Assembly (NCBI GenBank): GCA_036789645.1
Contig: DAIQLC010000002.1
Span: forward strand, 22,398-86,397
Direction: 5' to 3'
Length of the DNA stretch: 64,000 nucleotides
Source: Candidatus Hydrogenedentota bacterium
GTDB lineage: Bacteria; Hydrogenedentota; Hydrogenedentia; Hydrogenedentales; SLHB01
The notes beneath the pieces were generated by a model, which had not been told where the DNA came from, searched no databases, and saw only the letters and a program-made list of their open reading frames with translations. The position numbers and the translations under genes are program-made. Below, in pieces: positions 4,012-23,571 of this stretch (position 1 is its first letter; every line of letters starts with the position of its first letter).

Positions 4012-4896
4012 ATGCGCTTTGCACAGATTTCGGCCCTGGTCACGGGGCTGGCGCTGGTCCTGGGGAGCCCGGGCGCGTCCGGCGCGGAGGCGCCGTTCGG
4101 CTGGCAGGTGGGCCCGACCGCGTGGACCTTTAACCGCTTTACGCTCTTTGAAGCCATCGACAAGACCGCGTCGGTTGAGCTTGGGTACATTGAGGCGTTC
4201 GAAGGACAACGGGTTCGTCCCGATGCGGACCTGAAACTCCATGCCGCGTTGTCCGATGAGGCGATTCAGGCGCTCCGCGCCAAGCTGGACGCGTGCCGGG
4301 TCAAGATGCCGGGGATTTACATTCATACGATTCCCGGAGAGGAAGCGGCCTGCCGCCAGACGTTCGAGTTCGCCCGCAAACTGGGCGTGCAATATATCGT
4401 TTCGGAGCCCGCGCCCGAATCCCTGGATGTGATCGAACGCTGCTGCGATGAATTCGGCATCAACGTGGCCATCCACAACCATCCGGAAGGCAAGTCGCGG
4501 TACTGGAGTCCGGAGGAGGCCCTGAAGGTATGCGAGGGCCGCGGCCCCCGTATTGGCGTGTGCGCGGACACCGGTCACTGGCTGCGTTCGGGACTGGACC
4601 CGAGCGAGTCCGTCCGGAAACTCGGCAAACGCCTGCTGACCCTGCATTTGAAGGATTTGGACCGGGCCGCGCCCGACGGAACCGACCGGCCATGGGGGCA
4701 AGGCTGCGGCGAACTCGACCAGGTGCTGCGGACCATCCGCGAACTTGGGCTCACGCCGGCCCTGTTTGGCATCGAATACGAATCGAATTGGGAGAATAAT
4801 CTGCCGCACGTCGTGGAATGCGCGGCGTGGTTCAAGAAGACGGTAGGCGCCCTCGCCGCCGGGGAAGCGCAACAGGCGGATTCGGGGCAGCAATAA
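4012..4896 (+). CDS. Exported sugar phosphate isomerase/epimerase (xylose-isomerase-like TIM barrel); candidate 3-keto-glycoside eliminase/lyase.
   Basis: ATG at 4012 lies 2 nt after the stop of the upstream dehydrogenase. Signal peptide MRFAQISALVTGLALVLGSPGASGA. AP-endonuclease 2/xylose-isomerase-like barrel signatures (INVAIHNHPE, ADTGHW, LHLKD). The longer track ORF 3550..4896 is an out-of-frame artefact overlapping the previous gene. Confidence 0.8.
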   Translation: MRFAQISALVTGLALVLGSPGASGAEAPFGWQVGPTAWTFNRFTLFEAIDKTASVELGYIEAFEGQRVRPDADLKLHAALSDEAIQALRAKLDACRVKMPGIYIHTIPGEEAACRQTFEFARKLGVQYIVSEPAPESLDVIERCCDEFGINVAIHNHPEGKSRYWSPEEALKVCEGRGPRIGVCADTGHWLRSGLDPSESVRKLGKRLLTLHLKDLDRAAPDGTDRPWGQGCGELDQVLRTIRELGLTPALFGIEYESNWENNLPHVVECAAWFKKTVGALAAGEAQQADSGQQ

Positions 4897-4927: not shown

Positions 4928-7243
4928 TCAGTTCGCGGTGAAGGTGTATAGGCACGCGCCGGCGGGGGGCAGGCTTGCCTCAAGCGGCGCGGCGCCGTCG
5001 AACGGCCCCATTGCCCAAACCCCCTCCTCGTCGATGCGCGCGAGCATGCACGGGGCGGGGAGGGGATAGGTCTCGCGGGGCAGCGCGAGCGAAAGCGTCT
5101 GAGGCTCGTCGGTCACGTTCGCGAGGACGATGGCCACGCTGCCGTCGGCGGCCTGCCATGCACTCGCCATGACGCGCGGACACGCTTTCCGGTACTGTTT
5201 CAGAGCGTCCTGTTGCCCCGCGTAGATGGACAGGCGGGAGATGTCGATTTCCTCCTCGGGGAGTCCCAGGTCTGGCGGGCGCAGCATCGTTCCGTGGAGG
5301 AGATAACCGAGCCCCTGCTGGCGGACCTTCGCCAGACGGGTCAGGTACGCGAGCTCGGCGGGGCGCTCTTCGAAATGAGCGGGGAGGAAATTGGCGATCG
5401 TGGGCTGCTGTCCCCAGACGAACGCGCGGGCATGTTCCAGGCGGAACTGCTGCGAGAATTTCGTGTCGAGCAATTCAAGGGGGTTCTCCGGCGCGAACTC
5501 GGCGGGCCACAGTTCGTCGTAGGGGGGCATGGTGAGCGAAGAATAATTCCCGAAGAAGATGGCGTAGCCGTGATAGACCGCATGGAAGAAGGGGATGGGG
5601 TCCCAGACGCCCGGCTGGGCGTAGCGTTCCATGCTGACCTGGAGGCTGAGCATCAGGTCGAGATACGGCAGCCAGGCCTCCCCGCAGCCTTCGCCCGCGA
5701 GGACGACGTTCGCCTGCCCGGCGGCATCCGGTTGCGCGTCGCAGCGGTTGCGGATGTCCTCCTGCAGGTTGCGGAACCCGTCGATCCAGTACGTACCGCC
5801 CCCGATGGGATGACCGTGGGCCGGGTCGTAGCAGGGCAGGCTGGCGCAGGCCTGATCCATATAGATGGCGCCGACGCCGAGGCCGGTCACGGCCTGTTCC
5901 GCAAGTCCGGCGTAGGTATTGCGCCAGAATGACGTGCCCATGCACATGGCGGCGCAGGGCGCGGGTTTGAACGTGTTGTAGGTTTCGGGATGCACCTTGC
6001 CGTCGGGTCCTTTGACCGCGAATCGCTCGGCGCCTTCCGCGGCCCAGCTTTCCGTGGTCATGCCCCAGAGCCGCTGGTTCATGTAGACCATCGCGTGGAT
6101 CCCGGCTTCCCGGGCAGCATGAACGGCGTCACGAAACGGTTCGGCGCCTTCGCGGGGCGGGAGGTACTCCGGGAATCCGATGTCGTAGGGGCAGCCGTGC
6201 CACCAGTGCCAGAAGACGCTCACGGGCAGTCCGGTCCGCTCCTGAAGCGCGCGGGCCGGGGTGAGCACCTGGCCGGAGCGGCCGCGGTTCCATACCCAGA
6301 GCGCGGTCTCGACGGCCCAGTCTTCCACACGGCCGGTTTTGAGGCGGGCTTCCCGGGCCCAGGGTTGCTGGAGGGCCCAGACGCGGTATCGCTCGGCCGC
6401 CGTGAACCAGTCACCCTCGAAGGTGCCGAGCGCAACCCGGTATGCCGGTTCGTAGCGGTTCTGCCCGGCCGAGCCCCCCTGGGGCAGGTGCACAACCTCG
6501 AGCCCCGCACGGTTTTCGGCGCCTCCAAACACACAGAAGCGCTTCGCGAACGCCGCCGGGTCGTCCGAACTGATGAAGAGGCCCGGGCCGTCTTCTCGAT
6601 ACAGGGCAATGCATTGCAGTGAGAGCACTCCGGGATATTCCCACTCCATGCGGCCGGGCTTTTCAGGGCGGGAAAGAAACCGGCGCGGCTCTTCAGCGAG
6701 CTGTCCCATCCAGATCGGTGCGGCGAGCCGTTCGTTTTCCTGGGGAGCGATCCCCGGAATCCGAGGGAACCGAAGCGAGGCAAGCGGCAGATTGGCCGTG
6801 TTCTCGACCGCAATGCGCCAATGGGCGGTGGAGACATCCGGGTCGAGCGAGACCGTCGCGACCACCTGCAAATCCGGGGCTTCCGCCACGCCGAAATCGC
6901 GCCACGCGAGTTTCAGGGCGCCGTGGTGGTCGTCCAGAAACGCGTACGTGAAGGACTGGGCGCTGCCGGGCGCGATCTGGGTGACGGGGCAGGGCGGCAG
7001 CATGTGGAGAGTCCAGAGGTCGCCCATGGCCGCGGCCTCGACGAAGGCGTGCCCGTTCATTCTGTCGGTGAATTCCGCCAGGCGTCCGGAATCCGGGTCA
7101 AAGGCGACACGGAGCCCGGCGTTTTCCAGTACGGGCAAGGCTTCGGGGAGTGCGGCCCGGGATGGCGCAGCCGCAGCCAGAATCGCGAGGATGAAGAACG
7201 CGGCGCATAGGGTTTTGAACGGTTCAGGCTGGCGATAGGTCAT
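4928..7243 (-). CDS. Uncharacterised secreted glycoside-hydrolase-like protein (~770 aa).
   Basis: ATG at 7243 (MTYRQPEP...) with RBS aaggaga upstream. Signal peptide FFILAILAAAAPSRA. Trp-rich catalytic-looking core (VFWHWWHGCPYD, AIYMDQACA). No family recognisable by eye. Confidence 0.6.
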   Translation of the reverse strand: MTYRQPEPFKTLCAAFFILAILAAAAPSRAALPEALPVLENAGLRVAFDPDSGRLAEFTDRMNGHAFVEAAAMGDLWTLHMLPPCPVTQIAPGSAQSFTYAFLDDHHGALKLAWRDFGVAEAPDLQVVATVSLDPDVSTAHWRIAVENTANLPLASLRFPRIPGIAPQENERLAAPIWMGQLAEEPRRFLSRPEKPGRMEWEYPGVLSLQCIALYREDGPGLFISSDDPAAFAKRFCVFGGAENRAGLEVVHLPQGGSAGQNRYEPAYRVALGTFEGDWFTAAERYRVWALQQPWAREARLKTGRVEDWAVETALWVWNRGRSGQVLTPARALQERTGLPVSVFWHWWHGCPYDIGFPEYLPPREGAEPFRDAVHAAREAGIHAMVYMNQRLWGMTTESWAAEGAERFAVKGPDGKVHPETYNTFKPAPCAAMCMGTSFWRNTYAGLAEQAVTGLGVGAIYMDQACASLPCYDPAHGHPIGGGTYWIDGFRNLQEDIRNRCDAQPDAAGQANVVLAGEGCGEAWLPYLDLMLSLQVSMERYAQPGVWDPIPFFHAVYHGYAIFFGNYSSLTMPPYDELWPAEFAPENPLELLDTKFSQQFRLEHARAFVWGQQPTIANFLPAHFEERPAELAYLTRLAKVRQQGLGYLLHGTMLRPPDLGLPEEEIDISRLSIYAGQQDALKQYRKACPRVMASAWQAADGSVAIVLANVTDEPQTLSLALPRETYPLPAPCMLARIDEEGVWAMGPFDGAAPLEASLPPAGACLYTFTAN

Positions 7244-7437: not shown

Positions 7438-8655
7438 ATGACGAGGCCCCGCGCACGTCTCTTTCTCGCAGCACTGGCAGTCCTCCTGCTGATTCTGCCG
7501 TACTGTGCCACCGCGCCGAAACCGGAGACGGAACGGCCGCCAGAGAAGAAGGCCTTTTCCGGCGCTTCGTCGCGCATCGCGGGGATCCTGCGCGAGATGA
7601 GCGAGGTGCGCAAAGCCCAGCCTCCGGAGGGTGAAGCGAACGCGGATGCGGCGGCCTCCGGCCAGAGTGCCCTCGAACAGCGGTTGAACAAGCGCGCTCA
7701 GATTCTCGCCAAGGCGGTGAGCCGCGAGATGGGGGTGGACTTCGAGACCCGCGTGTACCAGATGTTCGGGGCCCCCGAGCCGATCAAAGACGAGACCGTT
7801 CTGCTGGAGGCCGTCGACGACAAGGGCAATGTTTCGGAAGTGCCGGTGGTGGTGCAAACGCGGCAATTGCGGTCGTTGACGGACCAAGCCGTCGCGGTGA
7901 AAGCGATGCGGCTGGCAGGCGAAGAGCAACTCGCCACGGAATTCTACAAGGAAGTGCCGGAACCCGTGCAGGCGGAGACGGCGAGTGCATTCCGCCGGGT
8001 GTATGAAGAGGTGGACGCACAGGCCATCGCGATGGAAGCGCGGCTGATTGTGATGCTGAAGGGCGGGGAGTGGGCGGCGCCCGAGAGCAAGAAGCCCGTG
8101 GCGAATGCGATCGCGGTGCGCGGACTCGATTTTGAGAAGGGGTTGAAGGAGAACTGGAACAAGACGTACGACGACACCATGTACCTTGTGCTGGAGACGG
8201 CTACGGGCCCGGCGGAAGTGTATGAATACCGCATGACGACGGAGTCGAGCAGCGAGAGCAAGGGCGTGGGCCGCCTGGAATCGAAACAGGTGACGTATGT
8301 GCGCGGCAAGCACCGCGGCACGGATCCCGGCTATCGTCTGCAGGGCAACGCGGCGCCCGGCACGCGGGTCGGGATCAAGGGCGCACAACAAATCACCGGG
8401 GCCAACATCCATTCCGCCTATTCGAAGCGGCCCATAAACAGTGAAACCCCGCTCCAGCCGAACGTGTCGCTGGGGTGCCAGGTGGTGGCGGCGAGCAAAC
8501 AGGATTTCGAGAAGTCGCTGGTCCAGACGCTCGACCAGCGGGGCGTCAAACAGTTCCTCTACACCATCGTGGACGATGCGGAACTCGCCGAGCTCAACAA
8601 GATCCTGGAGAGCCAGGGCGTGAAATCCGTGCTGGCGAGCGCCGTGTCGCGCTGA
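7438..8655 (+). CDS. Hypothetical exported protein with a C-terminal YkuD (L,D-transpeptidase)-like His...Cys motif.
   Basis: ATG at 7438 after ggagaa. Signal peptide LFLAALAVLLLILPYCATA. C-terminal segment ANIHSAYSKRP...SLGCQVV resembles the L,D-transpeptidase catalytic H/C arrangement (weak). Confidence 0.5.
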   Translation: MTRPRARLFLAALAVLLLILPYCATAPKPETERPPEKKAFSGASSRIAGILREMSEVRKAQPPEGEANADAAASGQSALEQRLNKRAQILAKAVSREMGVDFETRVYQMFGAPEPIKDETVLLEAVDDKGNVSEVPVVVQTRQLRSLTDQAVAVKAMRLAGEEQLATEFYKEVPEPVQAETASAFRRVYEEVDAQAIAMEARLIVMLKGGEWAAPESKKPVANAIAVRGLDFEKGLKENWNKTYDDTMYLVLETATGPAEVYEYRMTTESSSESKGVGRLESKQVTYVRGKHRGTDPGYRLQGNAAPGTRVGIKGAQQITGANIHSAYSKRPINSETPLQPNVSLGCQVVAASKQDFEKSLVQTLDQRGVKQFLYTIVDDAELAELNKILESQGVKSVLASAVSR

Positions 8656-13599: not shown

Positions 13600-15924
13600 T
13601 TATTTAAGTATTGTGTCCCCGAAACTCAGGTCGAGGAGCCAGCGGCAGTTGATTACTTTTTCGACGAGATCGAGCGGGAGGTAGAAGTACTGGCACGAGG
13701 GTTCGAACCCGATGCGGGAGTCTTCGCGGGTCAGGGTGAAGAGCTGTCGGGCGAGGTCTATTTCGGATTCGAGGGCCCGGCGGAGTTCGGTCAGGTGCCG
13801 ATCGCGTTGTTCGGGAGCGAGGGCTTCGCCGGAACCGGCGAGGGCGTCGCGCGCCATGACAAAGCGCGCCTGGTTGGCAACCGACTGGAAGTGGATGGCG
13901 GCGGCGCGGGCCAGACGGAGGTCGCCGCCGGCTTCGGCGCGGAGAGGCTCGGGCGTCTTCTGTAATGCGGCTTCGAGTTCGGTGATGCCGGGCTGCCAGC
14001 CCTGTGCGACCTTCTCGAACTGCGCGGCGAACACCTCCGGCGGGTAGGGCCCGCGCCAGCCGTTCAGGTCATCGTAGGGAATGCCCCACATGGTCGCGCT
14101 GTAGCCGGTTGGGGCGGAGAAGAGGGGATTGGCGGGGCCGCATTGAACGGGCGAGGTATACACCACGCTGATGTGAAACGGGTATTCGCGAAACGCGTCG
14201 CTCATGAGGGTCCAGGCCTTGCGCGCGCCGGGCGCGGCATCGGATCCGAACCGTTCGCGGGCAATGTCATCCAGTACGGCATCGGCGCTGGGGGCGGTTG
14301 TCTGGCTCAAGCGGTGCGCGAGCTGGAAATTGGGGGAAGGGAACCCGCCCATGGTCCAGCCGATGAGCATGGCGTCGAGCCGGGCCGCGTCGCGCAGATT
14401 GATGCAGTGTTCGGCGATCAAATCCATGACGGGCAGGTAGGGGACGGTAGCGATTTCGCACGTGTTGTTGAATTGGATTTCCGTGCCGGTTTTCAGGCCG
14501 GTTTCGCGGGCGGTTTTCCAGTGGGCCTGCGAACGCGGGCCGGGACCGACCGCGGAGATCGAGTATTCGCCGACGGTCGATTGGATGCCGCCCCGCTCAA
14601 TGGGCAGATGCCATTCGCTGACGGACATGAGGTAAACGGTCTTGGGGAGGCGGGCGATGATGTCGGGAGCGTCGCCGTGGCCGCGCCAGCCCCAGTCGGA
14701 GATCAGGACGGCGGCGTCCGGATTGCCGCGGTGCACGCCCTCTTCGATGACCTGAACCACCTCGGCGAGAATGTCGCCGTCGGTGCGGTCTTTGCATCGC
14801 TCGCAGGCTGTCCAGGCGCCGTGCGACGCGCAGTTGGTCAGGTTTTCAGACGCCGTGATGGCATAGACCCCGGCCAGTTCCGGCACCTCGCGGAAGATAT
14901 GGGTCAGGGCGCCCCCCATCCAGGCGCGCACGGCGGAGTGGGAGGTGCACAGGGCGGTCAGGTCCCCTTCCTGAACGCCGGCAACCTCGGGATGACTGGC
15001 AAAGAAGGTGGTGGGCATGGCGCGCGGCTCGTTGATGTAGAGGTAGACGCCGATGCCGAAAGTCCTGGCGCGCTGGACCAGTTCCCGGAGGTTGGCGAGC
15101 CGTCTCGCATGGTTTTCGCCGAATTCCGGAAACGCGTCCCCGCCCGGCGCCAGGTCCCTCAACAGGCCTTGCAGCCACACGCCGTTGATGCCGGCCTGCG
15201 ACAAGCGCGCCAGCAATCCGTCGGGGTAGGGATTCAGCTCGGGGGTCAGCAGCGGATCGCCGTAGACGGCCACGTACGAATAGACCAGCCGCCGCGGGTC
15301 GCTCAGCGCGGCCGCCGGGGGCGGCGGCGTGTAGCCGGGGGGCACGTCCTTGATCTGCCGTACAAAATCGAAGCGCGGCTCGGCGGGAAGCGCAATCTCG
15401 TCGCCAAACACCTCGTGAACCACGGCGCGGATCTCCGCGGCTCTGGCGCGTGCGGCGTCATCCGGTTTCTGGTAACGGACGGGTGGACAGGCCGGTTTGA
15501 GGCGGCCGAGCTTGATCCACAAGAAGTCTTCCTCGCGCAGCGTAAATGCCAGGCGCTCGGGAGTCATCTCGACGAGTTGCAGCAGTTGCTCGTAGGGCAG
15601 GAGATGCCAGTTTCTGCGGATAAGGGTGGCGTACCCGCGTTTCTTCAAGTCGGGAGAGACCGCGGGTTCCGCGGGCAGTCCCATCGATACGGCCATCGCC
15701 GTGATGTCCTCGACCGGCGCTCCGAGCACCTCGGCGAGTTTTGCCGGCTCTACGGCGTTCCAGTTGCGCCACACGAAGGCATGCGCGGTATCGGGGAAGT
15801 GGGCGAACGTTACCGGCGGGGGCGCGTCGCCGTGCGGAAGCGCCGCGTCATCCGTCGCGGCCCAGGCCGCACAGCAGAGGAATGTGGTCAACGCACCCAT
15901 GACACAGGAGAAAGGACTGGACAT
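13600..15924 (-). CDS. Uncharacterised secreted glycoside-hydrolase-like protein (774 aa).
   Basis: ATG at 15924 (MSSPFSCVMGALTTFLCCAAWA, signal peptide). No match to the neighbouring large proteins by eye. The antisense 595-aa ORF 14143..15930 was rejected. Confidence 0.7.
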   Translation of the reverse strand: MSSPFSCVMGALTTFLCCAAWAATDDAALPHGDAPPPVTFAHFPDTAHAFVWRNWNAVEPAKLAEVLGAPVEDITAMAVSMGLPAEPAVSPDLKKRGYATLIRRNWHLLPYEQLLQLVEMTPERLAFTLREEDFLWIKLGRLKPACPPVRYQKPDDAARARAAEIRAVVHEVFGDEIALPAEPRFDFVRQIKDVPPGYTPPPPAAALSDPRRLVYSYVAVYGDPLLTPELNPYPDGLLARLSQAGINGVWLQGLLRDLAPGGDAFPEFGENHARRLANLRELVQRARTFGIGVYLYINEPRAMPTTFFASHPEVAGVQEGDLTALCTSHSAVRAWMGGALTHIFREVPELAGVYAITASENLTNCASHGAWTACERCKDRTDGDILAEVVQVIEEGVHRGNPDAAVLISDWGWRGHGDAPDIIARLPKTVYLMSVSEWHLPIERGGIQSTVGEYSISAVGPGPRSQAHWKTARETGLKTGTEIQFNNTCEIATVPYLPVMDLIAEHCINLRDAARLDAMLIGWTMGGFPSPNFQLAHRLSQTTAPSADAVLDDIARERFGSDAAPGARKAWTLMSDAFREYPFHISVVYTSPVQCGPANPLFSAPTGYSATMWGIPYDDLNGWRGPYPPEVFAAQFEKVAQGWQPGITELEAALQKTPEPLRAEAGGDLRLARAAAIHFQSVANQARFVMARDALAGSGEALAPEQRDRHLTELRRALESEIDLARQLFTLTREDSRIGFEPSCQYFYLPLDLVEKVINCRWLLDLSFGDTILK

Positions 15925-16113
15925 GTTTAGAGCATCCTTGCGCCCTGCCGGCCCGGCGTGCGCGGGCACGGCCTGGCGGCGTTCCGGTTGACGACGAGCG
16001 GGCGGCGTTCCCTGTCGCCCGCAGGCAATATGCAGGAACCCGGCGGGACGAATCAATTCCGGCCGCCGGGGACATCCGAAATACTGGAATGCCCCGGTGG
16101 GTGTTCGCGGGCG

Positions 16114-18717
16114 CTACCGCCTCATCAGCCAGGCCTCGGACACGAGGGTGCCCCAGCCGCCGGAATTGCGCCACTGCTCGCGCGACACGCGATCGCCGCG
16201 CGCCACGTCGGCGCCCCGTTCGAACCGGACCACCAGGTCGCCGTCCCGGGTGAGCTCCTGAGGGATGTCCCAGGTGAAGAAATCGCTCATTTTGAAGGGG
16301 AGTTCCACGTTCTCCGCGAGCACGCGGTCGTCCGCATAGATGGTCTGGGCCTTCTGATTCATGCGTCCGGCATACCGCTCCTGATACCAGGGCCGTACGA
16401 AGGTGAATCGAATGCGGTACGCGGCGGCCGGGTCGAGGTTGCGGTAGTGCAGGGTCACGCCCTGGTCTTCGTCCTGGGTGAAGTGCATGGACGCCTGGCT
16501 GGGACGGTTTCCTTCATCGAGCATTTCGTTCAAGTACGGCTGGCCGTGGTCGTACGGGTATCCGAAGACCACATGAGGCGCGTTGTTTCCGGTGCCCAGA
16601 TTGTCGTAAAAGCCGCCTTCGCCGGCATCCTCGTAATTGGTGATCATGGCGAGCATCTCGCGGCGTTCGTCGCCGGACGCGGCGAGGGCGCGTTCAAGCT
16701 GGCGTTTGACCCAGCCCAGCCCGATGTAATCGTGTTCGAGGTTGAACATGCCTTCACTGCGCATGCCAAACCGGGTGTTGCTGATCTCTCCCAGCGCGAA
16801 GGCTTCCTGCCGGAGGGACGCCATGGTCCCGGTTTCGGCAAGGTCGTCGAACCATGCGAGGGCGGTGGTCAGCGCATCGTCCGGCGCCGGCTGCGCGGTG
16901 TCGCGGAGATGGGTCTCGAGCCGCTGCTGCAGCGTTTTCTGCTGGCGCACCCGCTCCTGCGTGTAGCGGTCGACGGCGGCCTTCTGCATGTACATGTGCC
17001 AGACATAATCCTGCTGCCGGCGCCAGGCGGGCATGAGCTCGCCGGCCTGTTTCATGAGGTCGTAGCAGCGTTCCACGCTCTCCTTCCGGTCGATGGGGGT
17101 TCCGGGAATCTCTTCCATCACGTCTTCCAGGAGAAAGAGGGCCTCGGTCATCAACGGAGCGGCTTCAGGACCGAACCATGTGCGGCAATATTCGGCCGTG
17201 ACTTCTTCGGGGGTCTGCCGCGGCGCCCAGAGCAGGCGCTGCCAGAGCCATTGATTGAAATGGTCGTGGTGGCCGCTGCTGTGCGTGACGTCGCCGACGC
17301 CGTAGTGCATAAGATCGTTGAACACGCGGTGGTAGAAGCGGGGCCAGGCGTACCAGGTCTGGCGGGCATAGACTTTTGTGAGCGCCAGATCGGGGCGGCG
17401 TTCGTAGATCTCGTGGCTCCAGTGCGGGGGGAGATCGCCGTTGCGATCCGCCCGGGGGTACATCTGGATATACGCATGCTGCGCGTATTTCCAGTGGGTG
17501 ATCTCGTTGAAGTACACGAGCTGATGCCGCGGAGGCAGTTCGCGCAGGATTTCGCGCGGATACAGGGCGAAGGGGCCATACCCGGGGTAGCGGAACAGGT
17601 CCATGCGGTGGGTCTGCCGGTGCCCGGGCTGCCAGGTGGTCGCGTCGGAGCCTGGACCGTATCCGAAGGCCCACAACCACTCGCGCGGCTCCGACTGGAG
17701 GTAATCGAATATGGCGCGGTCGTCCGCGTCGTCAAATTTCTGGTTTACGATGAAGATGCGCGAGTTGGGGTGGTATTTGCGGACGATTTCCGCCATTTCG
17801 GCCACGGTCTCGATGAAGATCCTGCCATAGGGATCGCACCGGTCGCATTCACAGCCGCCGCCGTCACCGCCCTTGAACCGCACGAGGTCGAAGAAGGGGC
17901 AGGACCGGAACTGTTCTTCACACTGTTCGAGCATGCGTGTCCGCGCCTCGGGAACGGACAAACAGACAAAACCCTCGCGTCCGATGGACTCGGCGGCTTC
18001 CCAGGCCTTGGGAACGGCGCTGTGGGCGATGTTGGCATCGCCGTCCGTCAGCGTCATCAGACCGTAGGACACGATAAAGTCGTACATGGGTCCGGGAGCG
18101 GTCTCAAACGTGTTGGCGCCGGCCAGCGCGTAATTCAGGATAACGCGCTGGGTCTCTTCGGGGGTCCACGGGCGGTTTTTCCCCAGGCTGAGTGCGGTGC
18201 CGCTCTGGCCATACTGCGTGCCGCGGATTTCGAAAGCGGGCGCGGTCCGCACGTGAAGCGCGTCGGGTATGCGGATCGCCCCGTCATCAAAGGTTGCCTG
18301 GCGGAGAATCTCGCCGGCGGCGTAGAGACAGCCGCGATCGTCAATGCCCGCGGCCAGCAGTGTGCCGCCCGGGCCCGATGGAAGCAAGTGGAGTACAAAC
18401 CCCTCCGGTCCCGGGGCGAGGGACGTCAATGGAGGGATGCCCTCAGCCTCCATGGCGTCGCGCAAGGCCGCATGGTGCTCAGGGCGGCCCAGAAGGATGG
18501 TGAGCGTGGCGGTGCCGGAGGCTGCGGTGTTCCCGATCTGCACGGGCGCCATGCCCGGCTCGGCCAGGCGTTCCTGAAGCAGGCGCGCGACGCGCTGCTC
18601 GACGGGGCCGGCCGTCTCCCCCGTCTGGATGGCCACGTCGCGGTACGCCGCGCCCCAGGCGACCGAACCGATAAGAAGACCAACAGCGATGATGGGAATA
18701 ATCCGGCAGCATCTCAT
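16114..18717 (-). CDS. Uncharacterised secreted glycoside-hydrolase-like protein (867 aa).
   Basis: ATG at 18717 (MRCCRIIPIIAVGLLIGSVAWGAAY, signal peptide); alternative ATG at 18747. Motifs CECDRCDPYG and HDHFNQWLWQRLLW; family not recognised. Confidence 0.7.
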   Translation of the reverse strand: MRCCRIIPIIAVGLLIGSVAWGAAYRDVAIQTGETAGPVEQRVARLLQERLAEPGMAPVQIGNTAASGTATLTILLGRPEHHAALRDAMEAEGIPPLTSLAPGPEGFVLHLLPSGPGGTLLAAGIDDRGCLYAAGEILRQATFDDGAIRIPDALHVRTAPAFEIRGTQYGQSGTALSLGKNRPWTPEETQRVILNYALAGANTFETAPGPMYDFIVSYGLMTLTDGDANIAHSAVPKAWEAAESIGREGFVCLSVPEARTRMLEQCEEQFRSCPFFDLVRFKGGDGGGCECDRCDPYGRIFIETVAEMAEIVRKYHPNSRIFIVNQKFDDADDRAIFDYLQSEPREWLWAFGYGPGSDATTWQPGHRQTHRMDLFRYPGYGPFALYPREILRELPPRHQLVYFNEITHWKYAQHAYIQMYPRADRNGDLPPHWSHEIYERRPDLALTKVYARQTWYAWPRFYHRVFNDLMHYGVGDVTHSSGHHDHFNQWLWQRLLWAPRQTPEEVTAEYCRTWFGPEAAPLMTEALFLLEDVMEEIPGTPIDRKESVERCYDLMKQAGELMPAWRRQQDYVWHMYMQKAAVDRYTQERVRQQKTLQQRLETHLRDTAQPAPDDALTTALAWFDDLAETGTMASLRQEAFALGEISNTRFGMRSEGMFNLEHDYIGLGWVKRQLERALAASGDERREMLAMITNYEDAGEGGFYDNLGTGNNAPHVVFGYPYDHGQPYLNEMLDEGNRPSQASMHFTQDEDQGVTLHYRNLDPAAAYRIRFTFVRPWYQERYAGRMNQKAQTIYADDRVLAENVELPFKMSDFFTWDIPQELTRDGDLVVRFERGADVARGDRVSREQWRNSGGWGTLVSEAWLMRR

Positions 18718-18841
18718 GCGAATCACACTCCCGTGTTTTCCCGGCATTCAGACGTGCCGGATAGCCGAATGGAACCGCCCAACGTGGTGAAGAGGAGAGA
18801 CTCGCGAGGGGAGTCGCACCTCAGACAACCATATCACAATC

Positions 18842-18886
18842 GGGGACACGCAGTCGCGCCGATGACGGCGGCCCCTGCGTGTCCCC
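18842..18886 (-). terminator. Stem-loop with 12-bp perfect arms (ggggacacgcag ... ctgcgtgtcccc) downstream of the minus-strand efflux operon.
   Basis: Perfect inverted repeat with a 21-nt loop, 23 nt after the stop of the 18909..19103 gene; a weakly U-rich tail follows on the minus strand. Confidence 0.4.
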
Positions 18887-18908
18887 GAGTTCGAACGGTC
18901 TCTGTGGG

Positions 18909-19103
18909 TTATTCCTTGGTAGGCTTATTGCATACGTCACAGATCTTGATCTTGGACACGATGTCAAACAGCCACATCGGCGCCCAGAGGCCAAGCGTGA
19001 AAATGGTCAGCCACATGTGCTGCCGGTGGTTGACCTCGTCGTAGTGGTACGTGACCGGCTTGCCGCAGTGGCAGCATGGGACAGTGGGAGTCTGGGTCGT
19101 CAT
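18909..19103 (-). CDS. Small LITAF-like zinc-ribbon membrane protein (64 aa).
   Basis: ATG at 19103 with strong RBS gagaaaggaaacgaac. CxxC knuckle (PCCHCGK), then a hydrophobic segment MWLTIFTLGLWAPMWLF, then a second CxxC (KICDVCNK). This is the split zinc-ribbon architecture of the LITAF/SIMPLE-like domain. Confidence 0.6.
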   Translation of the reverse strand: MTTQTPTVPCCHCGKPVTYHYDEVNHRQHMWLTIFTLGLWAPMWLFDIVSKIKICDVCNKPTKE

Positions 19104-19215
19104 GTTCGTTTCCTTTCTCAAGCCTGACGGACCGGCATTTGCGGTGAATGCCCCGGGCGCGGTCAATCAGGGAACCGAATTCAGTGAATACACGGCTGCG
19201 TCGAGAAAGGGGGGA

Positions 19216-19587
19216 TCACACCTGAAGCTGGCGTTTGAGAAGCAATACGGCGCGGGAACCCCAGGCGGCCGGGGCGCGCATTGCCGGCCGGGGCGCGGAG
19301 GGCGCCGCCGAGGGCAGGTCGAACGTGAAGGCGGCAACCCCGGGCGGGCCGCCGCACTCCAGCGGGAGGCGCAGCCCCTTCCAGGTGCTGGCCGGGCCGG
19401 ACTGGACCACGGCAATCCAGCTGGAATGATCGGTTTCGAGGGTGGTCTGCTGTGGTGAGCCGGGGAGCGTGGGCGGCGCCTCGAGGAAGCAAACCGGAAC
19501 GCACGCCATGGTCAGCACGACCACTGCGGCTGCTGTCCGCTGCAACGGGGTCCGGAGGGTTCCAGAGTATGGAGCAACATTGCGCAT
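19216..19587 (-). CDS. Possible small exported protein or lipoprotein (weak).
   Basis: ORF between the permease and the LITAF-like gene on the same strand. Hydrophobic N-terminus AAAVVVLTMAC. No RBS, Pro/Ala-rich. Confidence 0.25.
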   Translation of the reverse strand: MRNVAPYSGTLRTPLQRTAAAVVVLTMACVPVCFLEAPPTLPGSPQQTTLETDHSSWIAVVQSGPASTWKGLRLPLECGGPPGVAAFTFDLPSAAPSAPRPAMRAPAAWGSRAVLLLKRQLQV

Positions 19588-19784
19588 AGGACCAATTATA
19601 GCGGGAATCAGGCGCATCGGCAACGAACGCACTTGGCCCGATTCGGCGGGCACGGACGTTGGGGGCGGGGGCGCCGCCGGAGCCGGCCTGCACGTCGCGG
19701 CAGGCAGAAGGTCCGCGAGGGTCCGCTGGACGGCGTGGGGGACGCCCTTGGAGAGGGCGGGCTGATTCGGGCGGGAGGCGCGGG

Positions 19785-21053
19785 CTATTCGTGGCGCAGG
19801 GCCTCTATCGGGTCAAGGTTTGCCGCGCGGACGGCCGGGTAGATGCCGAAGACGATGCCGACAGCCATGCTGATGCCCACGGAGAGGACCAGGCTGTCGG
19901 GTGTGACAACGGTGGGCATGCCGGAGAAACGGGTCACCAGCCAGGGAATCGAAACGCCGATGCCGATGCCGATAAATCCCCCGAGGGTCGACAGCACCAC
20001 GGTTTCAATCAGGAACTGTACCACGATCTGTTTGCGTTTGGCGCCGATGGCGCGCCGCACGCCGATTTCGCGGGTGCGCTCCGTGACCGAGGCGAGCATG
20101 ATATTCATGATGCCGATGCCCCCCACCAGGAGGCTGATGCCGGCAATGGAGCCGAGCACGATGTTGAAATTGCGCTTGGTGGCTTCCGCCTGGCGCAGCA
20201 AGGCCAGCGGGACGCTGACCCGGTAGTCGGTTTTCTTGTGAAAGCGTTCGAGCATGCGCGTGATGCCCGCGGCCGTGGGTTCGACTTCTTCGTCGCTGCG
20301 GATCTGGACGATAAGCTGGTGCAGTTCGACGCGAGCCATTTCGCGCGACCCGCTTGTCCGGCGGATGATCATGTCGCCAAAGCACGACCGGGCCACGTTG
20401 AGCGGAATGTAGGCATCGACTTCCTGGTCGGGCGTTTGAATCGTTCCGCCCTGCTCGGCTTCGCTCTGGACAATGCCGACGACCTCAAAGTATTCGCTTC
20501 CGATGCGCAACTGCGCTCCGATGGCGCGTTCGGTGGCGAGCAGCCTGCGCGCTCCGTACTCGGTGAGTACGACGACGTGGGCGTGGGTGTCGACATCTCG
20601 CTGAAAAATGCCCCGTCCTGCGATGAACGACCGCTGGACGAGATCAAACCAGGCGGGGGTGGTCCCTACGACGCGCAGTTCGAGGGCGCGTTCGTAAAGG
20701 CGGCCCTCTTTCCGGACCTCTTTGACGGGCGCAGTGCGCTGGACCGCGGGAAAGGTCTCGATGATGCGCTGCTCGTCATCGTACAGGAGACCGTACATGC
20801 TCATATGGCTTTGGACGTTGGCGACGGCTTCGTCTTCGACGGGTTTGATGGTGGAGATGAGAATATTGGTGCTGCCGAGTTTGCGGATCTGTTCGAGGGC
20901 TTCTTTGCTGGCGCCCTCGCCGATAGACAGCATGGCAATGACGCTCGATACGCCGAATACGATGCCGAGCATGGTCAGCAGCGAACGGAGTTTGTGCAGC
21001 ATAAGCGACTTGATGCCGAGGTGGATGTTTCGCGCTAGGTTGAAGATCTGCAT
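19785..21053 (-). CDS. ABC transporter permease, MacB/FtsX family.
   Basis: N-terminal TM helix, large periplasmic domain, C-terminal FtsX-like 3-TM bundle (GGIGIMNIMLASVTERTREIGVRRAIGA). ATG at 21053 overlaps the upstream stop (TGATG); a GTG at 21056 is also possible. Confidence 0.85.
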   Translation of the reverse strand: MQIFNLARNIHLGIKSLMLHKLRSLLTMLGIVFGVSSVIAMLSIGEGASKEALEQIRKLGSTNILISTIKPVEDEAVANVQSHMSMYGLLYDDEQRIIETFPAVQRTAPVKEVRKEGRLYERALELRVVGTTPAWFDLVQRSFIAGRGIFQRDVDTHAHVVVLTEYGARRLLATERAIGAQLRIGSEYFEVVGIVQSEAEQGGTIQTPDQEVDAYIPLNVARSCFGDMIIRRTSGSREMARVELHQLIVQIRSDEEVEPTAAGITRMLERFHKKTDYRVSVPLALLRQAEATKRNFNIVLGSIAGISLLVGGIGIMNIMLASVTERTREIGVRRAIGAKRKQIVVQFLIETVVLSTLGGFIGIGIGVSIPWLVTRFSGMPTVVTPDSLVLSVGISMAVGIVFGIYPAVRAANLDPIEALRHE

Positions 21054-21769
21054 CACGCGTCATCCTCGATGCGTTCGATGTGGCCGTCGAGCATGTGGAT
21101 CCGGCGTTTTGCATGCAGCGCGATGCTGGGTTCGTGGGTCACCATGATGATGGTCTTGCCCTGCCGGTTCAGGTCGCACAGGAGCGCCATGATCTGATCC
21201 CCCGTAGACGTGTCGAGGTTGCCGGTCGGCTCGTCCGCGAGGATGATTTTGGGGTCGTTGGCGAGCGCGCGCGCAATGGCCACGCGCTGCTGTTGCCCAC
21301 CGGACAATTCGGTCGGGCGGTGACGCAGCCGTTGCGAGAGACCGACGGTTTCGGCCAGTTCGGCGGCGTGTGCCGCGCTTTTTTCCGTACTCCACCCCAG
21401 GTAAAACAGCGGCAGGGCGATGTTCTCGAGCACGGTCAACTGAGGGATGAGGTTGAAGCTCTGGAACACGAACCCGAGATGCTTGAGACGGATGTCGCTC
21501 AGGCGGTCGTCGTCCAGTTTGCTGACGTCCTCGCCCGCGATCATATAACAACCCGAGGAAGGGCGGTCGAGGCATCCGAGGAGGTTGAGCATCGTGCTTT
21601 TGCCCGAGCCGCTCGGGCCCATCACGGCGCAGAAGGCGCCGGGGGCAAACGCGAGGGAGACATTATCCACGGCATGCACTTCCTGCTCGCCGACCGTGTA
21701 GGTCTTGCTAACGTGCTCGAGGCGGATAACGTCCGTGCCGGCGTCGGGCTGGGTAGGAATGGGTGTCAC
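21053..21769 (-). CDS. ABC transporter ATP-binding protein (MacB/LolD-type).
   Basis: Walker [10 protein letters not shown], signature [15 protein letters not shown], Walker [15 protein letters not shown] start overlapping the adaptor gene stop (GTGA). Confidence 0.9.
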
Positions 21770-23571
21770 GGGTTCTCAGGCGCCCCCTCGGCGGGCCGTC
21801 CGCCGCCGCGCCGGCCCCTGCGCTGCATGAACTGTTCCCGTTCCTCGGGAGACATGTTCTGCAAGCGTTCCTCCATTTCCTTGCGCATCTTCTCGCGCTC
21901 CTCCGGCGAGGCATTGCGGAAGCGGTCGCGCATGGTATCCGCATCGGTGCTTTCGGCAGCGGCCGGCGCCTGTTCCGGTTCCGGTTTCGGCGCGGGCGCC
22001 GTTTCGGCCGCGGGTTCGGCGCTGGCCGGCGCAGCCGGTTCCGTGATTTCGGCGGGGAACTCGTCCAGCGGCCCTTCGCCGTTTTCGTGCTTGTCAATGG
22101 CGAGCGGCGGGTTCAGCAGGACGGATTCCCCTTGCTCAAGCCCACTCAGGATGTGCACCATGCGGTTGTTGTCGAGGCCGAGTTCCACATCGCGCGGGGC
22201 GACGCTGTTGCCTTTTGCCACATAGACGGTGGGCGTGCCCGCTACGCGGACGACAGCTTGTACGGGGATATACAGGGCGTCGCTGTAGCGTTCGACGATG
22301 ATCTCGGCGAGGCACGACACGCCGGTGCGGAGGCCGTCCGGGTCGCCCTCGATCACGATGTCGGTGTTGTAGACCTTGAGGTCGGGGTTGAGCCAGACGC
22401 TCTGGGCGTCGGGCAGCGGGGCTACCGAGGCAATCCGGCCCTGGTAGGTCTTGTCGGGCGCCGTTTCGGTGGTGATCCGGACGGGCAGCCCGGGCTTAAT
22501 CTTGGTGAGACTGGCTTCGTGTACGTCGACTTCAGCCATGAAGGATGAACCGGTCGGCAGGTAGATGAGTTCCTGCCGTTCACGCACGACCTGCCCTTCT
22601 TCGAGCGGTTCGGTGCTGCCGCGCCAACTCCCGCGGACCGACGTTGCGTAAACGACCAGCCCATCCGCCGGGGCGTAGATCTTCGTCTTTTCAATTTGCG
22701 TGACGATCTTGTCCAGCTTGTCTTTCTGGCGGAGGTACTCGGATTCTTTGGCTTTCAGGTCGGCTTCGGACTGCACGACATCGGCCGCGGCCTTGCGTTC
22801 CGTGCGTTCCAGGGCCATGCCCGCCTGGCGGACATCGCTTTCCAGCTGCGCCATGGTCCGCTTGTAGGTGAAATCTGTCAGGAGACGTTTCTGGTCTTCG
22901 GCCAGTTCGAGATCGAGCTTGGCTTTGACGAGATCCTGGCGGTCGGCTTCGAGTTCGATGGGCGTGATGAAGTCTTCCTTGGCGAGTTTCTCGGAGCCCG
23001 CGAGCTGTTCTTCAGCACGCGCGGCCGCGCCCTTGGCCAGGGTGATCCGCGCCTCGGCTTCCTTCAGCTGTTTGGGGAACTCGCCGTCGACGAAGTTCTT
23101 GAGGTCTTCTTCCGCGAATTGCAGGGTGAGTTTGGCCTTATCGACGTCGCTGGCGGCCTGGTTTTTCGCGACTTCGAGCTGTTCCCGCGCGCTGATGTAG
23201 GAGGCCTCGGCATTTTGAACGCGGATCTCCTGGTCCACGCGGAGATCCACGAGGCTGCTGGCGTCCAGTTCAATGAGCAGCTCGCCTTTCTTGACGTTCT
23301 TGCCCTCCTCGACAATCGAGAGGATCTGGGTCTGGCCCTCGACCTCGCATTTGATCACTTCCTGTTCCCGCGCCTTGATCGTGCCGGAAACGTTGATGCT
23401 GATCGTCAGAGGGCCTCGCTGAACCTCAAAAATGGCGCGCTCGGTTGTCGTGGTGCTGGTGTCGGTGGTTCGGGCCAGGACGCCATTAAGAACGACAAGC
23501 GAAAAGACCACAAATGCGAGCGCGCCACCAGCGGCCGCCCACCGAGTCCGGTTCATGTGGGGGAGCTTCAT
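21766..23571 (-). CDS. Efflux periplasmic adaptor (membrane fusion protein, HlyD/MacA family) with a Pro/Ala/Glu-rich C-terminal extension.
   Basis: N-terminal anchor WAAAGGALAFVVFSLVVL, a long coiled-coil hairpin, and a beta-barrel/lipoyl region (KIYAPADGLVVY). The C-terminal ~110 aa is low-complexity (PAPKPEPEQAPAAAE...EEREKMRKEMEE). Confidence 0.85.
   Translation of the reverse strand: MKLPHMNRTRWAAAGGALAFVVFSLVVLNGVLARTTDTSTTTTERAIFEVQRGPLTISINVSGTIKAREQEVIKCEVEGQTQILSIVEEGKNVKKGELLIELDASSLVDLRVDQEIRVQNAEASYISAREQLEVAKNQAASDVDKAKLTLQFAEEDLKNFVDGEFPKQLKEAEARITLAKGAAARAEEQLAGSEKLAKEDFITPIELEADRQDLVKAKLDLELAEDQKRLLTDFTYKRTMAQLESDVRQAGMALERTERKAAADVVQSEADLKAKESEYLRQKDKLDKIVTQIEKTKIYAPADGLVVYATSVRGSWRGSTEPLEEGQVVRERQELIYLPTGSSFMAEVDVHEASLTKIKPGLPVRITTETAPDKTYQGRIASVAPLPDAQSVWLNPDLKVYNTDIVIEGDPDGLRTGVSCLAEIIVERYSDALYIPVQAVVRVAGTPTVYVAKGNSVAPRDVELGLDNNRMVHILSGLEQGESVLLNPPLAIDKHENGEGPLDEFPAEITEPAAPASAEPAAETAPAPKPEPEQAPAAAESTDADTMRDRFRNASPEEREKMRKEMEERLQNMSPEEREQFMQRRGRRGGGRPAEGAPENP

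Follow-up and report, generated by a model that had tools for sequence, protein, structure and literature searches.

Can a bacterial protein of 64 residues be a membrane anchor of the LITAF type? Such anchors, which are monotopic and stabilised by zinc and are tied to the 1C form of Charcot-Marie-Tooth disease and to endosomal traffic, have been described as eukaryotic. The question is raised by a short open reading frame (ORF) on the minus strand of a 64,000-nucleotide (nt) stretch of contig DAIQLC010000002.1, from a Candidatus Hydrogenedentota bacterium; we refer to this whole stretch as the window. An initial annotation claimed for its product the LITAF-type arrangement of a CxxC pair, a hydrophobic segment and a second CxxC pair. 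Here we report that the ORF is a gene, that its cysteines and hydrophobic motif are conserved and that its product belongs to a large bacterial and phage family. We consider it moderately probable that the protein is a minimal, zinc-clamped anchor that enters the inner membrane from the cytoplasmic side without spanning the bilayer.

A conserved gene and its family

The ORF begins with ATG (19103..19101) and ends with TAA (18911..18909). Its translation, MTTQTPTVPCCHCGKPVTYHYDEVNHRQHMWLTIFTLGLWAPMWLFDIVSKIKICDVCNKPTKE, matches exactly all three peptide strings quoted in the initial annotation. The protein is laid out as C10xxC13, a hydrophobic segment M30-V49 and C55xxC58, with 9 residues before this module (MTTQTPTVP) and 6 after it. 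Long spurious ORFs crowd both strands of the region, and a chance ORF in GC-rich DNA had to be considered; comparison with related loci leaves this explanation practically no room. Against a relative with 89% identity, 31 of the 38 base changes fall in third codon positions and the changed codons comprise 26 synonymous and 7 non-synonymous ones, other pairs behaving alike. A Shine-Dalgarno sequence (AAAGGA) lies 7 nt 5' of the ATG, and in a DNA alignment of four loci GAAAGG and the ATG are invariant, in line with the claim of a strong ribosome-binding site. DNA farther 5' diverges in this alignment and contains a 44-nt indel, which indicates that the 64-residue start is real rather than a TTG start that would give an 85-residue protein. 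Forms of 64 residues are also annotated by NCBI in related metagenome-assembled genomes (MAGs), and the stop codon is conserved among the aligned loci. Together with the dozens of homologues that share invariant residues, these data show the ORF to be a gene on which purifying selection acts.

Among genomes, the nearest are MAGs of Candidatus Hydrogenedentes; identity to UBA2224 is 95%. A scan of GTDB genomes with the single protein found only two Hydrogenedentes MAGs, and a word-indexed search likewise returned close Hydrogenedentes relatives only. We searched 1.84 billion representatives exhaustively with phmmer and obtained 63 matches at E ≤ 0.001, of which we took 59 as genuine homologues. 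The four left out (P0008, P0024, P0043 and P0060) are long and repetitive, with repeats such as ...VSYTHLDVYKRQ..., match only through a Trp-rich helix and look like assembly or translation artefacts. Both CxxC pairs are present in 55 of the 59; in two of the other four the second pair is missing, in a third neither pair is found, and the last is truncated at the N-terminus. Alignments of 55 and 42 members show no variation at C10, C13, C55, C58 or W44; conservation is complete or at least 90% at H26, G38 and W40 and about 90% at T36. Conservation of C11 is confined to Hydrogenedentes.

Spacing varies little. Among 93 members with the full layout, the first knuckle is 11 residues from the (N/S)H motif in 89, and 9-14 residues separate the last Trp from the second knuckle. 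The family consensus is CxxC-x11-(N/S)HxLHLLL(S/T)xxTxGxWxPxW-x9-14-CxxCG, and the window protein carries the hydrophobic motif of the wider superfamily described below, (N/S)HxLH...(S/T)xxTxGxWxxxW, as NHRQHMWLTIFTLGLWAPMW. It belongs to a short sub-branch that ends in CDxC-x6/7 and in which H20, N25, P42 and D56 are invariant as well. The LITAF-type arrangement is thus solidly present and conserved, as the initial annotation had proposed, with invariant cysteines at nearly fixed distances.

A profile search retrieved 105 database proteins, nearly all of them unnamed or called 'hypothetical protein', and a cluster look-up of the relatives gave no useful names. Two names attached to relatives by JGI, 'ABC-type Fe3+ transport system permease subunit' and 'RNA polymerase subunit RPC12', are evidently automatic mis-annotations. 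Whether the query was the single protein or the family profile, searches of PDB chain sequences returned only generic zinc-ribbon or rubredoxin noise, and a Foldseek comparison of the window-protein model with BFVD and PDB found nothing meaningful. Some members are longer. In P0077 a second hydrophobic helix comes after the module, and after that helix a domain of the metallo-beta-lactamase fold (PF12706/PF00753); P0065 also has a second hydrophobic helix after the module and a tail resembling that of P0077, and other members carry different, presumably extracytoplasmic domains after the module. Such architectures suggest that the module can be used as a cytoplasmic N-terminal anchor of larger proteins.

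Topology of the hydrophobic insert

In the mechanism that we propose, the protein would lie on the cytoplasmic face of the inner membrane without crossing it. The knuckles C10/C13 and C55/C58 would each occupy the tip of a short beta-hairpin and would together bind a single zinc ion as a Cys4 zinc ribbon, which would in turn hold together the two ends of the 17-21-residue hydrophobic segment (M30-V49). This segment would fold as a helix, a turn (L37-G38-L39-W40) and a second helix and dip into the inner leaflet, with the N25-H26-x-x-H29 motif, part of the helix-start stretch N25-H26-R-Q-H29-M30, presumably at the lipid-water interface. An AlphaFold model places C10/C13 at the turn of a predicted beta-hairpin (strands 7-9 and 16-18) and C55/C58 between short predicted strands (52-53 and 61-62). 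We infer zinc binding, the same-side topology and the hairpin shape. So few residues lie outside the module that the module should itself be the function. By analogy with the isolated LITAF domain, the most likely role, though a speculative one, is that of a wedge or scaffold inserted in one leaflet and kept shallow by the zinc clamp, which could sense or support membrane curvature or lipid packing; alternatively, the protein may dock on a partner membrane protein through a conserved stripe of His, Thr and Trp residues.

Single-span proteins normally have one side that is poor in Lys and Arg. In the family, Lys and Arg make up 0.147 per residue on the N-terminal side and 0.185 on the C-terminal side, and 71 of the 93 members have at least two on both sides. 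Soluble double-zinc-ribbon domains are fused to the N-terminus in P0048, P0087, P0092 and P0105 and to the C-terminus in P0079, P0081, P0083, P0094, P0096 and P0101, in each case with no hydrophobic segment in between. In members that have another hydrophobic helix, the second knuckle is followed by a strongly basic linker (P0067, RPARDNRTKRNKAIR; also P0069 and P0063), and P0035 carries two complete modules in tandem. The hydrophobic segment of the window protein comprises 20 residues, but its uncharged core only 18 (H29-F46), and a Cys4 zinc site needs a reducing compartment. Taken together, these features favour a location of both knuckles in the cytoplasm and a re-entrant insert, an arrangement that sequence features lead us to regard as somewhat better supported than not.

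Several observations weigh against this topology. AlphaFold2, run with 42 sequences, models the window protein with one continuous helix from residue 26 to 49, which would hold the knuckles about 35 Å apart; the model is weak (pLDDT 77, pTM 0.34, two of five models above pLDDT 70). The uncharged cores of many relatives are 21-24 residues long, a membrane-spanning length. The conserved residues H26, H29, T33, T36, W40 and W44 would line up on the same side of an unbroken helix, and such a stripe suits a transmembrane helix-helix interface as well as it suits a hairpin.

These three points speak for a single-span (bitopic) protein that crosses the membrane once, through a helix of residues 26-49, and has a cytoplasmic N-terminus and a periplasmic C-terminus. 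Its first CxxC would then bind metal between two protomers or have some other role, the C-terminal CxxC would be a periplasmic disulfide, and the H/T/W stripe, with its i, i+3/4 spacing, would be an oligomerisation or pore-lining face. Against this reading, both flanks are equally rich in Lys and Arg, the same kind of soluble zinc ribbon is fused at either end with no extra membrane segment, and the linker between the second knuckle and a following helix is basic. A tandem protein would need its two modules in opposite orientations. The 18-residue core of the window protein has an invariant Gly and a frequent Pro position in its middle, the model of a sister family (described below) shows the homologous segment as a helix that is interrupted and has strands on either side, and a single span gives no reason for the co-conservation of the four cysteines and their spacing. 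We regard a single-span topology as unlikely. The non-spanning anchor of the initial annotation has indirect support from the charges, the fusions, the tandem module and the hairpin model of the sister family, and is contradicted by the AlphaFold model of the window protein itself.

Relation to LITAF, to a Cys-less sister family and to phage proteins

What the window protein shares with LITAF and CDIP1 (Pfam PF10601) is an N-terminal CxxC, a hydrophobic insert of about 20 residues and a C-terminal CxxC within some 60-70 residues, with the knuckles at beta-hairpin turns. The two may also have in common that both ends are cytoplasmic and that a zinc site clamps a non-spanning anchor (PMC5095921, PMC5142333). 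For LITAF and CDIP1 the topology with both ends cytoplasmic and no membrane crossing has been shown experimentally (PMC5095921, PMC5142333). LITAF contains about one Zn per protein and has both termini in the cytosol (PMC5095921, PMC5142333, PMC8353527); mutation of its cysteines abolishes membrane binding, and the domain self-associates (PMC5095921, PMC8353527). It also supports high curvature and gives smaller proteoliposomes (PMC5095921, PMC8353527). The hydrophobic region that characterises LITAF has about 22 residues, compared with 20 in the window protein (core 18) and a mode of 21-24 in its family.

The differences are in the residues. The second knuckle of human LITAF reads HYCPNC (PMC5095921), an HxCPxC motif that is absent here: the window protein has K53-I54-C55-D-V-C58, neither His nor Pro is conserved there in its family, and the window protein lacks the CPxC prolines of LITAF. 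Two plus two short strands are predicted for the window protein, against three plus two in LITAF. The hydrophobic motif of the window family is NHxxH...TxGxWxPxW, in place of the Cys/Gly-rich anchor of LITAF. The proline-rich N-terminal region of LITAF and CDIP1, with its PPxY and P(S/T)AP motifs, is not found in the window protein, which is a stand-alone bacterial protein, unlike LITAF.

The initial annotation would have been refuted by a missing match to the Pfam LITAF-like hidden Markov model together with a lack of conservation of the four Cys in homologues, and the outcome was split. The cysteines are conserved, but the window protein gave no match to PF10601 (zf-LITAF-like) at E ≤ 10, and scans of it against Pfam and NCBIfam produced only zinc-finger matches at noise level. 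However, 26 of its 55 relatives matched PF10601 at E < 0.1, more than matched any other Pfam family, and in members scanned individually the matches cover profile positions ~3-68 of 70, that is, both knuckles and the insert. Relatives P0056, P0029 and P0044 score 28.9, 27.4 and 26.5 bits, above the gathering threshold of 23.8 bits; P0019 reaches 23.6 bits, P0006, P0007, P0014, P0020 and P0047 reach 18-21 bits, and the closest relatives of the window protein, P0002 and P0003, do not match.

As controls, P0056, P0029 and P0044 were shuffled within segments, with Cys positions fixed and the polar or hydrophobic composition of each segment kept. Three of ten shuffled sequences still matched PF10601, at 9.6, 15.0 and 17.2 bits, none of them above the threshold. 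The best three natives therefore hold 10-12 bits of residue-specific signal above the shuffled controls. The same controls also count against LITAF membership: layout and composition alone account for up to ~17 bits, the 18-21-bit matches do not clearly exceed what the layout provides, and most sub-threshold matches could be due to layout and composition only. Profile comparisons weigh in the same direction. With hhalign, the family profile gave a probability of 0.7% against human LITAF (a sequence 99% identical to a PF10601-annotated database protein) and of 1.9% against a vertebrate LITAF profile, with only one knuckle aligned. The latter negative result is weak, since the vertebrate profile is shallow (five sequences), the LITAF search having given mostly near-identical mammalian sequences. 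A precomputed PF10601 match is likewise absent from all 105 relatives in the database.

Could the family nevertheless be a true, divergent homologue of the eukaryotic LITAF/SIMPLE domain? Common ancestry is compatible with the proposed mechanism, and under it the window family would be a prokaryotic and phage reservoir of the domain. It would explain the three relatives above the gathering score with near full-length alignments, which are themselves tied to the window protein at E values of 5e-4 to 3e-5 in the 1.8-billion-sequence search, the rank of PF10601 as the Pfam family most often matched and the excess over shuffled sequences. It fits less well with the silence of the window protein and its closest relatives against PF10601, the hhalign result with its shallow profile, the lack of precomputed matches, the different hydrophobic motif and the missing His before the second knuckle. 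Moreover, the hairpin motif also exists without any zinc ribbon. We regard common ancestry as a possibility that deserves attention but that we are inclined to doubt. Membership of PF10601 at the sequence level is marginal and only transitive; the window protein is LITAF-like in architecture and probably so in mechanism.

The zinc-free occurrence of the motif emerged from the profile search, which also recovered proteins with the hydrophobic motif in a cysteine-free context. Their pattern is ...G(W/Y)R(V/I)ESQ..xAVLVxGKPVNHVLHLLLSxFTLGLWxPVWxxxAxxGGEKRxxVxVDExG..., in which NHVLH is again invariant. An hhalign comparison of the CxxC branch with the Cys-less branch gave 99.2% probability and an E value of 9.5e-20, aligning residues 17-51 of the window protein with 38-72 of P0143; the hydrophobic hairpin motif and the strand preceding it are homologous in the two. 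Both families follow the same plan, with beta-strands before and after the hydrophobic insert, but the Cys-less family has no zinc, and its flanks are a helix and a four-stranded sheet rather than a zinc ribbon. In the AlphaFold model of this family, a helix at the N-terminus is combined with a sheet of four strands, and a helix-turn-helix hairpin is inserted; in P0143 the homologous segment is helical at 47-57, broken at LGLW and helical again at 62-71. Among the Cys-less proteins (within P0112-P0161), several have precomputed PF26438 matches and some are fused to DUF2510.

Phages carry the motif as well. The window protein matches phrog_2697 at an E value of 6.5e-6 over residues 8-49, its relatives match five PHROGs, and the Cys-less small membrane proteins are linked to phrog_17545 and phrog_34413. 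The phage families phrog_2697 and phrog_36892 include mycobacteriophage L5 gp35, Che12 gp38 and hypothetical proteins from both Vibrio phage Ceto and Rhizobium phage RHph_TM3_3_14B. A tblastn search of phage genomes with the window protein gave no match. With relative P0078, tblastn found L5 gp35, Che12 gp38 and about 30 similar phage genes, annotated as hypothetical or 'membrane protein', through the helix motif only, and full two-knuckle forms in Ceto and RHph_TM3_3_14B that align over both knuckles of P0078. Mycobacteriophage members have mostly the helix motif alone, unlike the two-knuckle window protein. Relative P0074 lies inside a Mu-like prophage. The TxGxW...W helix of 15 of the 55 relatives also gives sub-threshold matches to DUF4234 (PF14018), at profile positions 4-25; the best member scores 19.8 bits against a threshold of 25.3 through the helix motif only, the window protein does not match, and DUF4234, unlike the window family, has no zinc ribbon.

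On these sequence comparisons, the window protein is one branch of a broad, uncharacterised bacterial and phage superfamily that is defined by the hydrophobic motif and in which a Cys4 ribbon or else a sheet without zinc provides the scaffold around it; in the window branch, the proposed hairpin would be inserted into the zinc ribbon. A bolder reading is that the NHxLH...TxGxW...W hairpin is an ancient, self-inserting bacterial and phage module mounted on varied cytoplasmic scaffolds, and that its zinc-ribbon form is the prokaryotic or phage ancestor of the eukaryotic LITAF domain. We think this distinctly improbable; if it were true, the stand-alone 64-residue form would be a minimal curvature- or lipid-sensing unit, or an oligomeric conduit lined by His and Trp, and could be tested directly as such in a simple system.

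Gene neighbourhood and significance

Features of the locus and of related loci and phages are listed in Table 1. Upstream of the 64-residue gene lies a MacAB-type tripartite efflux locus, and between the two is a conserved ORF of 123 residues (MRNVAPYSG...LLKRQLQV) that gene callers missed. Its product has an Arg-rich N-terminus and a hydrophobic anchor and no Pfam match. It is conserved in the related loci L001, L005, L009 and L010 at 40-50% identity, with invariant blocks. A sigma-70-like promoter precedes it; the -10 box ends 7 nt before its ATG, and TATAAT or TATACT stands at the same distance in all five loci, which suggests a leaderless start. The 64-residue gene follows 112 nt after this ORF and is itself followed by a strong hairpin, so that the two are likely to form a single two-gene transcript with the 123-residue ORF as first cistron.

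Table 1. Features of the window, with equivalent promoter sites in related loci and phage relatives
Feature	Position	Strand	Evidence or remark
CDS (coding sequence), 64-residue protein, stop included	18909..19103	(-)	ORF translation, purifying selection, homologues
Shine-Dalgarno GAAAGGAA, 7 nt before ATG	19110..19117	(-)	GAAAGG invariant in four loci
Zinc knuckle 1 (predicted), C10-C-H-C13	19065..19076	(-)	C10, C13 invariant in 55- and 42-sequence alignments
Helix-start motif (N/S)HxxH, N25-H26-R-Q-H29-M30	19014..19031	(-)	H26 invariant or at least 90% conserved
Hydrophobic segment M30-V49	18957..19016	(-)	T36, G38, W40, P42, W44 conserved
Zinc knuckle 2 (predicted), C55-D-V-C58	18930..18941	(-)	C55, C58 invariant
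Stable GC-rich hairpin after stop; probable terminator without T-run	18840..18888	(-)	Folding, four-locus conservation
123-residue ORF, conserved, missed by gene callers	19216..19587	(-)	Between permease and 64-residue gene
Sigma-70-like promoter TTGCCG, 17 nt, TATAAT	19595..19623	(-)	Scan match 10/12
MacAB-type tripartite efflux locus	19785..23571	(-)	Upstream of small-gene pair, both Hydrogenedentes lineages examined
MacB_PCD/FtsX permease	19785-21056	(-)	
ABC (ATP-binding cassette) ATPase	21053-21769	(-)	
Membrane-fusion protein, HlyD family	21766-23571	(-)	
Equivalent promoter site, L001	~5495-5518		
Equivalent promoter site, L005	~5536-5559		
Equivalent promoter site, L009	~7496-7519		
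Phage relative, Fromanvirus L5 NC_001335.1	26341-26439		
Phage relative, Vibrio phage Ceto NC_042094.1	57467-57619		

The hairpin after the stop codon combines a 14-bp GC-rich stem with an inner stem (dG -50.6 kcal/mol; z -5.9 relative to shuffled sequences). Related loci preserve it, and four base pairs show compensatory changes among the four loci. It has no canonical T-run, and a consensus terminator scan found no terminator. The terminator claimed in the initial annotation is confirmed in part, as a strong conserved hairpin that lacks a T-tract. A search of positions 17500-21000 against Rfam found no RNA family.

Within the Hydrogenedentes examined, which are close relatives, the 64-residue gene always follows the MacAB-type locus. 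We considered whether its product might be a small accessory subunit of the neighbouring pump, as AcrZ is for AcrB, encoded with the 123-residue anchored protein. The gene stands after those for the membrane-fusion protein, ABC ATPase and FtsX/MacB permease in both lineages (89% and 77% identical proteins), in which the downstream genes differ. Against this, the genomes compared are closely related, a separate, conserved promoter, 200 nt beyond the permease gene, serves the two small genes, and more distant homologues occur in unrelated or prophage contexts without a transporter; we judge a pump subunit very unlikely. The gene-neighbourhood comparison of distant relatives revealed no shared context that would point to a role, a point against the membrane anchor that we propose.

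At a further locus, L011, an ORF of ~119 residues (4523..4882, plus strand) lies 118 nt upstream of the gene for homologue P0025 (5001..5219; 32% identity); its product is signal-anchored and rich in Ala, Gly and Pro, with a basic C-terminus rich in Gln and Leu. Homology of this ORF to the 123-residue ORF was rejected on a negative hhalign comparison, and the similar placement may be coincidence. Downstream of the 64-residue gene (13600..18747, minus strand), the window encodes an 877-residue protein with a weak DUF4838 match and an 818-residue protein with no Pfam match; in the relative with 77% identity, a sigma-70 fusion protein and other genes replace both. An anti-sigma role of the ZAS (zinc-binding anti-sigma) type, prompted by that sigma-70 fusion gene, was rejected: the HxxxCxxC motif is absent, and the window has no such neighbour.

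With its bare 64-residue form and dozens of natural variants, among them zinc-free, tandem and domain-fused ones, the family would offer a simple system in which to study the retention of a short hydrophobic hairpin in a single leaflet by a zinc clamp. Its practical value is modest until a phenotype or a partner is found. It also provides a structural hypothesis for sizeable families of hypothetical and membrane proteins, including the mycobacteriophage L5 gp35-like proteins and several PHROGs. In the window protein a widespread hairpin motif, also found without zinc and in phages, takes a minimal bacterial form mounted on a predicted zinc ribbon.

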